A stretch of DNA of 18,432 nt from a virus: the UHGV virus genome UHGV-1652841. The stretch is one strand, 5' to 3'. Of this stretch, positions 12,097-15,004 are shown in pieces. Each line of letters starts with the position of its first letter. Within the stretch, counting starts at the first letter, position 1. Both the position numbers and the translations under genes were made by a program. Below the pieces are notes generated by a model. The model was not told the origin of the DNA. It saw nothing but the letters and a program-made list of their open reading frames with translations, and did no database searches.

Positions 12097-12542
12097 GACA
12101 GGAACAGAGCTCGCTCTGCCTTGCGGCGATTCGTGAGCCCCGGCATCACCTTTCCGCCTGATTTATTCCAGCGCAGAAATTCATCTGCCGCGCCTTTTAT
12201 ATCGCCAGCATTCAGCTTTTTCAGCAGTGTAGATGTGGAAAGAGCACGCGACCCAACGTTGTAAGCGAACGACACCAGTGCGTCGAACTGGCCTTGTGTC
12301 AGCTTCACCCTGACAACTTTCAGCACGTCATTCTCATAACCAACAAGCCCTGTTTTCAGAAGCCTGTCAGCGGTTTGCTGGTCGATAGTCATACCGCGCT
12401 TTACTGGCTTTCCGTCAACCGGATGGGTCCAGCCATAGCCGATGGTCCACGGCGCATCTCCCGTTCCGGGGTCGGGGTAAGCAGTCAGCCGACAACCTTC
12501 AAATTTTTTTATCAGAGCAATTCCGTCAGGACTGGTTTGCAT
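12093..12542 (-). CDS. Endolysin, T4-lysozyme-like (GH24) family
   Basis: Resembles P22 gp19-type lysozyme (…[18 protein letters not shown]...GYG...[11 protein letters not shown]). Likely start is MQTSPDG (12542), overlapping the holin end; the listed ORF extends to 12614. Confidence 0.85.
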
Positions 12543-12858
12543 CGTCAACTCCCGCCTTTTTTGCTGCAAGTTTTTTAATAAGATTGCCGATCGAATCGGT
12601 GCCGATGTATCCAATAAAGACGCTGGCTATGTAGGCGAGGTTGCTGCTCAGGCCGATAAAGTCCAGAAGGTCACGAACGAACCAGGCAATCATCGCGCAC
12701 ATCAGCGCATCAATTAGCGTTTTTGTTACCGCGCCGCCGTTATAGCGACCACGCAGATACGCCATGATAAAAGCCAGCATTGCACCAATACCCTGCTCCT
12801 TGGCGGCAAGTAGCGCAGCGATGAAATCTTGTTTGTATGGCATTTTCATAGGCCTCAC
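12526..12858 (-). CDS. Holin (lambdoid class, dual-start motif)
   Basis: 110 aa; ...[26 protein letters not shown]...[16 protein letters not shown]... closely resembles lambdoid-prophage holins; N-terminus MRPMKM offers alternative starts; GGAGGT SD upstream. Confidence 0.85.
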
Positions 12859-13057
12859 CTCCGATTTTCCGGATGGTGCTGTGTGTGTGTTTGAAAAGGG
12901 TCAGGCTTCACGGGCTGGATTTATCAACAAAGCACGTAGCGGATGATTCCCGTGAGCCTGAAATTGATGAATATGTCTGAAATAACTAGACCATTAGTAA
13001 AACAACTCGATAAATGTGGTTAAATGAGACTACGTTCTCACAACTTAATTAGTACCA

Positions 13058-13228
13058 ATGATTATCAAGCCCTGCCCCTACTGCGGAAAGTTAATTAACC
13101 CAGAATCACTTGTGTGTAGCCACTGCCGGATAGTGAATCCTTTTGTGAAGGCCAGCAGAAGAGAAAAAGCGAAGAATGTATTAGTAATCGCTCTCGTTGC
13201 TGCTTTTTTAATTTGGATGATTCTCTGA
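13058..13228 (+). CDS. Small zinc-ribbon, tail-anchored membrane protein (not in the supplied ORF list; under 60 aa)
   Basis: 56 codons: MIIKPCPYCGKLINPESLVCSHCRIVNPFVKASRREKAKNVLVIALVAAFLIWMIL; CPYC...CSHC zinc-ribbon spacing plus a C-terminal hydrophobic helix; AT-rich context; weak SD. Confidence 0.4.
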   Translation: MIIKPCPYCGKLINPESLVCSHCRIVNPFVKASRREKAKNVLVIALVAAFLIWMIL

Positions 13229-13259
13229 GTTGCCAGTTTTCAATGAAGATAATGCGGGC

Positions 13260-13286
13260 AAAAAAAGCCTGCTCGGACGAACAGGC
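13260..13286 (-). terminator. Intrinsic terminator (minus strand) in the Q-to-lysis intergenic zone
   Basis: Stem GCCTG / CAGGC with 10-nt loop, followed on the minus strand by TTTTTTT. Confidence 0.4.
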
Positions 13287-13665
13287 ATGAAAAATAACAA
13301 TACCGTCAAGGAGGTGGCGCCGGGTGCCTCCCGGTGGAACAGCCCCAGCCGACTAGTTCCGCGCAAACAAACCTGGACAAAAAAGTTTGACTGGACGCCC
13401 CGCCGCATAGGGGGATTCACCACGAACCAAAAGATAAAATCATCCGGTGACCGGGGCAATATCTAACCGGAACTTTTCAGAATCACTTATTGTTTCCTGG
13501 AGAGTACATGAGCGTTGGTGAATTCACGTGATGCTTTTGGATGAGCGCTGAACCCAAAGGTCAGTATTTTCACACAGCAATTTTGCAAAAAGCAGCGCCC
13601 ATTCAAAACCAGGTCGCTTTCCAGTCACTCCGGGGAACCCATCATCGCAGACTGGAAAGCTTTTA

Positions 13666-13694
13666 CTGGAGCGGGCAAAGGAATCGAACCTCTG
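13666..13694 (-). other. tRNA 3'-end-like fragment (T-arm, acceptor 3' strand, CCA); possible att-core or tRNA remnant
   Basis: Minus strand reads AGAGGTTCGATTCCTTTGCCCGCTCCA: canonical GGTTCGATTCC T-loop and a ...CCCGCTCCA 3' end resembling a Gly-tRNA terminus. No complementary 5' acceptor strand within about 80 nt upstream. Confidence 0.3.
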
Positions 13695-13703
13695 ACGCGC
13701 AGC

Positions 13704-13958
13704 TTATTTCCAGCTTTCGCCATTTAAGGCTGAAAGCACTGTTTGATGTGTTACACCAAACATTCTCCCTAGCCCTCTGGCTCCATAAACCTTATGTCGT
13801 GGAATGTAGTTTTCTCTGATGAACTGGACGCTGTCCATTGTTAGCTTGCTCATACCATTCAGCTCACCAGCTACTAAGTAGCTAAGGTCAAATTTGGTTT
13901 TCTGAATGTGGCATGCAGAACATAGTAGTTGGCACTTTTCAACCTCAGCATAAAACAC
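13704..13958 (-). CDS. HNH endonuclease-like remnant with C-terminal HTH-like region
   Basis: 84 aa, GTG start right after an in-frame TAG; begins inside an HNH-type zinc motif (…LLCSACHIQKT…) without the upstream HNH residues; C-terminus ...FIRENYIPRHKVYGARGLGRMFGVTHQTVLSALNGESWK resembles HTH tails of phage HNH proteins. Confidence 0.35.
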   Translation of the reverse strand: MFYAEVEKCQLLCSACHIQKTKFDLSYLVAGELNGMSKLTMDSVQFIRENYIPRHKVYGARGLGRMFGVTHQTVLSALNGESWK

Positions 13959-14165
13959 CTAATCTGAGTGATAGTGCATCTCGCTTACATTTGCTGATTT
14001 GGTGGAAGGGTCTATGTGGTCAAACTGAAGCGAATATTCGGATCCGCAACTCGCGCAACGACCACCCAACTTTTCCACGGTCTTAGCAAGCCTAGCCCTT
14101 CGATTAAGATAGTAATCTTTGCTCGGCATTTACCACCTCTACCATTGGAGCTAAACCAGCATGTT

Positions 14166-14240
14166 TGGCGGGATAGCGTGGACTCGAACCACGATAAGAA
14201 GGTTAACAGCCTTCCGTAATGACCTTTATACGACTGACCC
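14166..14240 (-). tRNA. tRNA-like element, anticodon GTT (Asn-type), imperfect acceptor and D stems; possibly degenerate
   Basis: Minus strand: GGGTCAG-T-CGTA-TAAAGGTCAT-TACG-GAAGG-CTGTTAA-CCTTC-TTAT-CGTGG-TTCGAGT-CCACG-CTATCCC-G-CCA. Perfect anticodon and T arms and encoded CCA, but two adjacent mismatches in the acceptor stem and no nucleotide 26. Lies 60-90 nt downstream of the Q gene. Confidence 0.35.
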
Positions 14241-14330
14241 AAATAAAAAAGCCACCGTTGCAACTTAAGAGTCACTAACGGCAGCTTATGCGAATAGTGT
14301 TGCTCATTTGCTCAATGATGTCAACACGTT

Positions 14331-14819
14331 CTATGCTACATGTTTAATTTTCTCTACACGTTTCCGGTTTTTAAACGCACTATCCAGAACCGGGTAAATC
14401 ATAAACAACGAGGCATTGAGGATTTCGTCAACTTCCCGACGACAGGTTGCGAGCGATGGTTTTTGAATGCGCCCTCCGCCCCGGCATAACATCTTGCGAG
14501 GTCTTGCGACGCGATGATAGTAAGATGCAATGGCGTGCTTGGAAGATCCATGGGCGTAGTAGCTGAGGAGGATGCCAAAGGCTTTCTTGTCAATGTACAT
14601 GACGGAATCGACGACCTGAGAAATCAACATTCCATCATCATCATTGCACATTGGCCTTGTCATAACTCTTCCCGGCTCTACGCTCTCCATGAACTTCGCT
14701 ATTACGCTGCTCATGCGCTTTTCAAGACGACCTGAATAAACCCATGCCCCCCACAGTTCAAGCCAGCCATTCAGCCACTCGTGCTGCTCTTTGGTGAGGT
14801 TTAGTTCTCTTATGCCCAT
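14331..14819 (-). CDS. Late-gene antiterminator Q (QuuD-like family)
   Basis: 162 aa; LELWGAWVYSG...RPMCNDDDGMLISQVVD...ILLSYYAHG matches the pattern of lambdoid-prophage Q proteins (…RWGAWAA…RPQCCDDDAMII…DYYV…); position after ninH/rusA and before the lysis genes. Confidence 0.7.
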   Translation of the reverse strand: MGIRELNLTKEQHEWLNGWLELWGAWVYSGRLEKRMSSVIAKFMESVEPGRVMTRPMCNDDDGMLISQVVDSVMYIDKKAFGILLSYYAHGSSKHAIASYYHRVARPRKMLCRGGGRIQKPSLATCRREVDEILNASLFMIYPVLDSAFKNRKRVEKIKHVA

Positions 14820-15004
14820 CGTCTTCCCCTCTTGCCCTGTTTGACCATCAGGACGCCGTTAACTATTACGTGACGCTCGCCTTTGCTGTCTCGGTTGTAC
14901 TTAAGCACTGTTCCTCTTGCGCAGGAAAGCATCCTTGCCACTTCGGTCTGATTGCCTCGTGTCTGGATAAGAAGCTCTGGTATCGTTTGAATTGTGGCGT
15001 TCAT
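14810..15004 (-). CDS. ninH: NinH-like protein
   Basis: 64 aa; …TIPELLIQTRGNQTEVARMLSCARGTVLKYNRD…HVIVNGVLMV… closely parallels lambda NinH. Confidence 0.7.
   Translation of the reverse strand: MNATIQTIPELLIQTRGNQTEVARMLSCARGTVLKYNRDSKGERHVIVNGVLMVKQGKRGRRWA

Follow-up and report, generated by a model that had tools for sequence, protein, structure and literature searches.

A 56-amino-acid gene under selection in the Q-holin gap of lambda-like prophages, with a predicted tail-anchored zinc-ribbon product

The stretch of virus genome UHGV-1652841 analysed here (18,432 nucleotides, called the window below) contains a small open reading frame (ORF) at 13058-13228 on the + strand. From its ATG start it is translated into 56 amino acids, MIIKPCPYCGKLINPESLVCSHCRIVNPFVKASRREKAKNVLVIALVAAFLIWMIL, as given in the ORF listing of the window. 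This ORF is a real gene under purifying selection at the level of the protein. The evidence supports its being an accessory gene, or moron, of lambda-like prophages of Enterobacteriaceae, and its product is predicted to be a tail-anchored inner-membrane protein carrying a zinc ribbon. A first-pass annotation had placed an unlisted ORF of this length here, with a CxxC...CxxC ribbon, a basic stretch and a hydrophobic C-terminus. The frame is found at exactly this place and on the + strand, and all three parts can be read from its translation: four cysteines (C6/C9/C20/C23, residues 6, 9, 20 and 23, in the pattern CPYC-x10-CSHC), the stretch K31-N40 and the segment V41-L56. The parts of the gene are the following, where dN/dS is the ratio of non-synonymous to synonymous substitution rates.

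13058-13228, + strand: coding sequence of the 56-amino-acid protein, including the stop codon (intact frame in 42/42 loci, dN/dS, three contrasts)
13073-13126, + strand: predicted C4 zinc-ribbon region, residues 6-23 (CPYCG ... CSHC; cysteine conservation, Pfam, AlphaFold2)
13133-13153, + strand: VNPFVKA motif, residues 26-32, which links the ribbon to the helix (invariant in both clades of the protein)
13148-13177, + strand: basic juxtamembrane stretch K31-N40 (KASRREKAKN), seen in the sequence
13178-13225, + strand: predicted C-terminal hydrophobic anchor V41-L56, with zero residues beyond it (hydropathy, AlphaFold2 helix)

The window has 81 ORFs of at least 60 amino acids across its six frames. 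The length of the ORF alone is therefore not significant, and the case for a gene above chance comes from conservation. The frame is open in all 42 homologous loci that were fetched (13 nucleotide alleles, 9 proteins), and these intact copies come from E. coli, Citrobacter, Salmonella and metagenomes. The window has no longer in-frame form, and all alleles start with ATGATTA. The encoded proteins fall into two clades: clade A proteins have 56 amino acids and are 80-100% identical to the window protein, while clade B proteins have 59-61 amino acids and are about 50-57% identical to it. Variable sites at the first, second and third codon positions number 9/9/21 in clade A and 9/11/22 in clade B, and 8/13/26 when the window is compared with the clade B locus L024. 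Within clades, Nei-Gojobori dN/dS is 0.07-0.26 for informative pairs. Between clades, the proportion of differing synonymous sites (pS) is 0.76-0.96, meaning that synonymous sites are saturated, and the corresponding non-synonymous proportion (pN) is about 0.3. Conservation and Ka/Ks had been put forward earlier as the check for this ORF, and with that check now run, the frame is seen to survive down to about 54% protein identity with saturated synonymous sites.

An excess of synonymous changes over the neutral expectation was scored in three phylogenetically independent contrasts. Between the window and L005, a Salmonella locus, there are 14 synonymous and 11 non-synonymous changes (P = 2e-4), between L024 and L031 there are 20.5 and 17.5 (P = 7e-5), and between clade A and clade B 30 and 34 (P = 6e-6). 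Frame +1 is the only one that is free of stops in all alleles; each of the other frames has stops in at least some of them. The antisense frame -2 was also considered as the coding frame, as its dN/dS of 0.23 is equally low, but it has stops in clade A and was rejected. Its low ratio arises because its third positions are shared with the real frame.

Common to both clades and invariant are the four cysteines, H22, VNPFVKA, E36, K39 and N40 (alignment A2). The cysteines are invariant in 41/42 loci, the exception being L046, which is taken up below. A search of 5.8 billion proteins returned only four relatives, 84-96% identical and from E. coli, Citrobacter freundii and Salmonella, and a search with the divergent form led to Citrobacter relatives. 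Scanning IMG/VR gave 25 loci, and a metagenome scan gave 8 further ones. In the Salmonella locus the flanks are unrelated to the window, and homology is limited to about 13049-13248, which is essentially the gene alone.

The exact protein occurs on 583 contigs in public collections, where it and close relatives are named 'DUF2116 family Zn-ribbon domain-containing protein' or 'predicted nucleic acid-binding Zn ribbon protein' (NCBI, UniRef). The first homology search missed the exact protein because of a clustering artefact: in a collection clustered at 90% identity, the 56-amino-acid protein is filed under an unrelated representative of 980 amino acids (P0147), apparently a solute-binding protein. 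In the RefSeq annotation, no feature covers the ORF in any of the 10 complete E. coli genomes in which it occurs. When 1.84 billion representatives were searched with a profile, 140 matches came back, mostly generic zinc-ribbon repeats. About 10 of these have 61-78 amino acids and the layout of the ORF protein, in which the pattern PCPxCG...CxxC...(N/D)PF-x-K leads into a basic stretch, with hydrophobic residues at the end. IMG/VR scans with three distant relatives (P0010, P0012 and P0013) gave no matches, and the three diverge too far for their alignment to serve as a query.

The N-terminal part of the protein is predicted to form a C4 zinc-ribbon fold, with two CxxC knuckles on beta hairpins, and it may well bind zinc. 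The Pfam family DUF2116 (PF09889, 'probable treble clef') matches with 24.6 bits and E = 2.5e-5, aligning residues 6-56 with positions 6-56 of the 59 in the profile. The relatives P0002 and P0003 score 20.2 and 22.3 bits with the same family, and 6/12 broader relatives match it at E <= 0.01. For Zn_ribbon_3 (PF13248), the 91%-identical P0003 (27.2 bits) and the distant P0012 (28.1 bits) are both above the cut-off of 27, and 10/12 relatives match at E <= 0.01. What the protein shares with DUF2116, Zn_ribbon_3, Zn_Ribbon_1 and DZR is four cysteines in two knuckles. These are families without known function, so that a DUF2116 or zinc-ribbon label explains nothing. Searches of NCBIfam and PHROGs with the protein gave nothing informative. 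The AlphaFold2 model, made from an 8-sequence alignment, has a predicted local distance difference test score (pLDDT) of 79.7, with short beta elements and knuckles at residues 4-26 and one continuous helix at 28-55. A Foldseek comparison with the PDB yields nothing but small zinc ribbons of the NZF and RanBP2 types (root-mean-square deviation 1.1-1.3 A over 26-27 residues), at a non-significant E > 0.4. A profile search of PDB sequences returned only noise and no relative of solved structure.

The C-terminal part is consistent with an anchor. The Kyte-Doolittle maximum over 15 residues is 3.1 and starts at residue 41, and residues 1-40 have a net charge of +6. Both the sequence and the model have a single hydrophobic segment at the extreme C-terminus, with its end at L56 and no signal peptide, as expected of a tail-anchored protein. 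The clade B anchor has a different sequence and equal hydrophobicity. Because of the positive-inside rule and the basic stretch, the N-terminal domain would be cytoplasmic. The architecture proposed in the first-pass annotation, a zinc ribbon with a C-terminal membrane anchor, thus stands as a prediction that agrees with the cysteines in 41/42 loci, the near-threshold Pfam matches and the AlphaFold2 model. The membrane-acting role, which that annotation called plausible, is likewise a prediction.

The gene lies in a part of the prophage where cargo is exchanged. The relevant neighbours, and a segment that is naturally missing in one relative, are listed here.

14331-14819, - strand: Q-family antiterminator
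14166-14240, - strand: tRNA-Asn
13704-14129, - strand: HNH endonuclease gene, broken
13256-13448, - strand: small RNA (sRNA) STnc100 (RF02076), convergent with the ORF (Rfam 71.7 bits against a gathering score of 47, full-length)
12526-12849, - strand: lambda-family holin
13000-14034, no strand: dispensable segment with the candidate promoter, the ORF, STnc100 and most (the 3' part) of the HNH gene, absent from L040

From high to low coordinates, the order of the late transcript is Q, tRNA-Asn, HNH, STnc100, the antisense ORF and the holin, followed by lysozyme and Rz. Holin, lysozyme, Rz and Q are all on the - strand, and the ORF is on the strand opposite to the late operon, as had been claimed. 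In every locus it is on the + strand between Q(-) and holin(-), opposite to the late genes. The surrounding zone is AT-rich as described, with a guanine-plus-cytosine (GC) content of 0.40-0.42 over 12900-13300 against 0.50-0.56 in the flanking late genes. Placement in a moron region is supported by the constant Q-holin gap, the changing neighbours, the lower GC content and a natural deletion.

The neighbours change in several ways. The holin is of the lambda type (Phage_holin_3_1) in the window, L001, L005 and L039, and of the type Phage_holin_2_3 in L002 and L031. L004 has Phage_holin_8 and Phage_holin_3_7, and L038 has a 279-nucleotide 'phage holin' gene of a non-lambda type. The Q genes near the ORF belong to several families. 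Even one identical allele of the ORF is found in three Q contexts and with two holin types. In E. coli MS 115-1 this allele is beside tRNA-Gly/Thr/Ile and a Q gene of 837 nucleotides, and in KL53 (L038) it is beside an intact HNH gene, tRNA-Asn and a Q gene of 489 nucleotides. In the Stx1a prophage of the Shiga toxin-producing E. coli (STEC) strain RM9088 (L039 2539-2709 (+)), the identical allele is part of the order Q, stxA1, stxB1, STnc100, ORF(+), holin. Here, the ORF is about 300 nucleotides downstream of stxB1a on the opposite strand, with STnc100 in between. Identity between L039 and the window ends at 13422, inside STnc100, which suggests a recombination junction within the sRNA. In clade B loci the cargo of the Q-holin gap includes the sRNA isrI, a YnfU-like zinc protein of 56 amino acids and csp genes with cspA-type thermoregulator leaders. 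The coordinates of this cargo are L024 2497-2593 (-), 3542-3712 (+) and 4120-4499 (-), and it is also found in L032.

The deletion is found in E. coli C 236-04A (L040), where window positions 12501-12999 (100% identical) are fused directly to 14035-14900 (97%). This natural deletion of 1,035 bp joins the holin leader to codon 32 of the HNH gene. Since the L040 prophage exists without 13000-14034, the gene is dispensable for prophage maintenance.

Several further observations concern the neighbours themselves. The HNH gene at 13704-14129 (-) is broken by a nonsense change, TCA to TAA, at codon 57 (stop at 13959-13961), and the intact 141-amino-acid HNH gene of KL53 (L038 3185-3610) has only two other substitutions compared with the window. 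The 194 bp at 14137-14330, with the tRNA-Asn directly downstream of Q, are 97-99% identical to a region of phages 21, Sf6 and SfI, whose records annotate a late promoter, a qut site, a terminator and tRNA-Asn/Thr there. The holin leader at 12840-12975 (-) folds with a minimum free energy of -37.2 kcal/mol (z = -2.46) into a long hairpin with arms at 12901-12914 and 12949-12961, and a second hairpin pairs the Shine-Dalgarno sequence of the holin, GGAGGUG. The holin starts with Met-Lys-Met, a dual start like that of lambda S. Between the two ORF clades this leader is conserved more than the ORF, and its holin-proximal part, 12860-12965, recurs in 60 other matched E. coli genomes. It also includes a (TG)5 run at 12880-12889, the length of which varies among related loci, and the window is four bases longer here than most aligned relatives.

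Because the ORF is encoded opposite to the late operon, the late transcript cannot serve as its mRNA. Two features bear on how the ORF would be transcribed instead.

12997-13025, + strand: candidate promoter, with -35 GTAAAA at 12997-13002, a 17-nucleotide spacer ending in TGG (TG at 13017-13018) and -10 TTAAAT at 13020-13025
13267-13286, - strand: GC-rich hairpin with a T-run on the minus strand, which is the STnc100 terminator, 39 nucleotides past the ORF stop (terminator scan)

From these letters, the ORF probably has its own weak extended -10 promoter. The -35 hexamer is weak, with GTAAAA in the window and TTAAAA in other alleles. The promoter-like box about 35 nucleotides upstream of the ATG reads TGTGGTTAAAT in clade A, TGTGGTAAAAT or TGTGGTAAAGT in clade B and CATGGTTTAAT in L005. 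It is kept in all lineages, including L005, whose upstream homology stops just before the box. The hairpin of the STnc100 terminator is at most 120 nucleotides downstream of the ORF in 28/42 loci; it is not a canonical terminator of the ORF, because there is no T-tract on the + strand. Expression of the ORF in the lysogen is probable.

Taken together, we consider with moderate confidence that the ORF is an independently transcribed moron encoding a tail-anchored zinc-ribbon protein, which acts as a tethered binder and likely gives the lysogen a trait. A promoter of its own and the place on the opposite strand would fit production of the protein in the lysogen. Its C-terminal helix would anchor it in the inner membrane with the ribbon facing the cytoplasm, and the ribbon would bind a partner and keep it at the cytoplasmic face of this membrane. 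Binding to a partner is inferred from the pattern of conservation: the protein is most conserved in the cytoplasmic ribbon and the NPF motif, and the sequence of the anchor drifts, which makes a pore or a detergent-like toxin less likely than a binder or sequestering factor tethered to the membrane. The gene moves among different Q genes, holins and neighbours, so that the partner is less likely to come from an adjacent phage gene than to be a host component or something shared by lambdoid phages. The pay-off would most likely be a lysogen trait, such as exclusion of superinfecting phages or modulation of a host process associated with the membrane.

It is worth noting that a number of results weigh against this reading. 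On the side of expression, a scan for strict consensus promoters found none, a Shine-Dalgarno sequence is missing from all alleles (which read ...gtaccaATG at the start), and a terminator scan found no + strand terminator after the ORF. On the side of the protein, the window protein is under both Pfam gathering cut-offs (24.6 against 26.8 for DUF2116, 23.5 against 27 for Zn_ribbon_3), and with just 16 residues the hydrophobic stretch is short for spanning the whole membrane. The locus L046 (416-586 (+) on the 2.2-kb metagenome contig Ga0153982_1009111) carries an 80%-identical allele with C9Y and C23Y in an intact frame; either this is a decaying copy or the zinc site is not absolutely required. 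The gene is also rare. It is present in 10/5426 complete E. coli genomes, in copies that are at least 99.6% identical, and a scan of species-representative genomes found it in none. A tblastn search of 50,697 phage records with the proteins of both clades gave no real match, only zinc-knuckle matches at E >= 0.07. PADLOC-DB 2.0 has no defence family that matches the protein, only a 17-bit zinc-knuckle match to a homing-endonuclease model. The three readable contexts of distant relatives have no common neighbour and no prophage setting, and no partner was found.

A bolder version goes beyond the tethered moron and is, in our view, unlikely as a whole. Here, the protein would be the founder of a new class of tail-anchored zinc-ribbon effectors of prophages, which would work at the inner membrane on its cytoplasmic face and could block the DNA entry or replication of superinfecting phages, or capture a host regulator or protease. 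The cassette with STnc100, including the one in the Stx1 prophage, would then be a lysogen-conversion module beside toxin genes.

Other explanations start from the position of the gene. It is always in the Q-holin gap beside the lysis cassette, and its product is predicted to be in the same membrane as the holins. It could thus be an antiholin-like or holin-associated protein that modulates the timing of lysis, by restraining a leaky holin in the lysogen or by tuning lysis itself. However, the holins next to the ORF come from three or more unrelated families, two of which are paired with the identical allele. In L005 the ORF is about 800 nucleotides from the holin, with STnc100 between them. 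Being on the opposite strand, the ORF is not co-expressed with the holin, and other cargo, namely stx1, csp genes and ynfU, is also found in the Q-holin gap, which is a general site for such genes. A role in lysis is for these reasons improbable.

The convergent sRNA brings another possibility, a system like the type I toxins, in which membrane damage would come from the small hydrophobic protein, whose mRNA STnc100 would silence by overlapping it at the 3' end. We rate this somewhat lower again. The protein is indeed small with a hydrophobic end, and STnc100 ends 28 nucleotides past the ORF stop in the window and is convergent with the ORF in L001-L004, L009, L021 and the divergent L031. With no + strand terminator, the mRNA of the ORF would run into the sRNA. 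But in L005 and L023 the sRNA flanks the ORF on its other side, loci of the L024 type have no STnc100, and the energy of the STnc100 duplex with the ORF mRNA is no better than that of shuffled sequences (fractions 0.47 and 0.33). The strongest constraint falls on the soluble zinc ribbon and not on the hydrophobic segment, and we know of no type I toxin with a zinc ribbon. Membership of a type I toxin-antitoxin system was rejected on the point of obligate antisense pairing, with STnc100 rearranged or absent and the duplex energy like that of shuffles. In the literature, two STEC strains are described as having a copy of STnc100 directly after stx2, and matches to this sRNA are reported as frequent in prophage and phage sequence, whereas the ORF is found in so few E. 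coli genomes.

It is also conceivable that the peptide is incidental and that the transcript matters: it runs against the late transcript in the stretch from Q to the holin, and collision or pairing with the late-operon leader could dampen holin expression. The missing Shine-Dalgarno sequence would fit this. Selection at the amino-acid level in three contrasts, and the 54% protein identity kept after synonymous saturation, speak against it, and invariant cysteines and an invariant NPF motif are not expected for a role at the RNA level only. We regard this as very unlikely, a shade below the toxin. A chance ORF without function, as its shortness, the 81 longer ORFs of the window and its omission by RefSeq in 10/10 carrier genomes might suggest, is effectively refuted by 42/42 intact loci, variation at third positions, a dN/dS of 0.14-0.26, the synonymous excess and stops in all other frames in some alleles.

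In lambda-like prophages, the cargo hot-spot from Q to the lysis genes, which also houses Shiga toxin genes, gains a validated small gene. It shows how standard pipelines and thresholds of 60 amino acids can miss a small, predicted membrane protein that is under selection. Some records already list the protein under the name of a generic domain. The gene call is well supported. If a partner is found, the protein may represent a new way for prophages to alter the lysogen.

Among known systems, DanI of uropathogenic E. coli shares some features with the protein. DanI is an inhibitor of the LytTR regulator DanR, has 69 amino acids and is described under DUF2116, and its zinc finger is homologous to that of DksA according to the authors (bioRxiv 10.1101/2025.06.10.658900). 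Both are small four-cysteine proteins with the DUF2116 label, and DanI, a zinc protein encoded on a mobile island, binds and inhibits its partner. However, the UTI89 sequence of DanI has no hydrophobic anchor, and its cysteine motif is in the C-terminal half. Neither protein search from the ORF protein recovered DanI, and there is no LytTR gene near the ORF in any locus examined. DanI was therefore rejected as an analogue on the missing anchor, the different cysteine layout and the lack of an adjacent LytTR gene.

The predicted topology is that of the tail-anchored inner-membrane proteins ElaB, YqjD, DjlC and Flk, which have a cytoplasmic domain, a single C-terminal hydrophobic segment and essentially no periplasmic tail. 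These proteins are larger than the ORF protein and are not known to carry zinc ribbons or to be related to it in sequence. Small, prophage-encoded, membrane-located products that are expressed in the lysogen are also known among type I toxins and superinfection-exclusion proteins such as P22 SieA, T4 Imm and HK97 gp15. None of them is known to have a cytoplasmic zinc ribbon as its conserved part, and no homology of the ORF protein to such toxins or exclusion proteins was found (PADLOC and PHROGs were uninformative). The closest likeness is in the setting, namely to the morons of the Q-holin gap: stx1/stx2, cspB/cspF/ynfU of Qin-like prophages, and the sRNAs STnc100 and PasD. The product and role of the ORF differ from theirs, and unlike stx it cannot be driven by Q-dependent read-through, because it is transcribed against the late operon. 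Like them, it occupies the same cargo site, is dispensable, has a lower GC content and is shuffled among prophages with different flanks.

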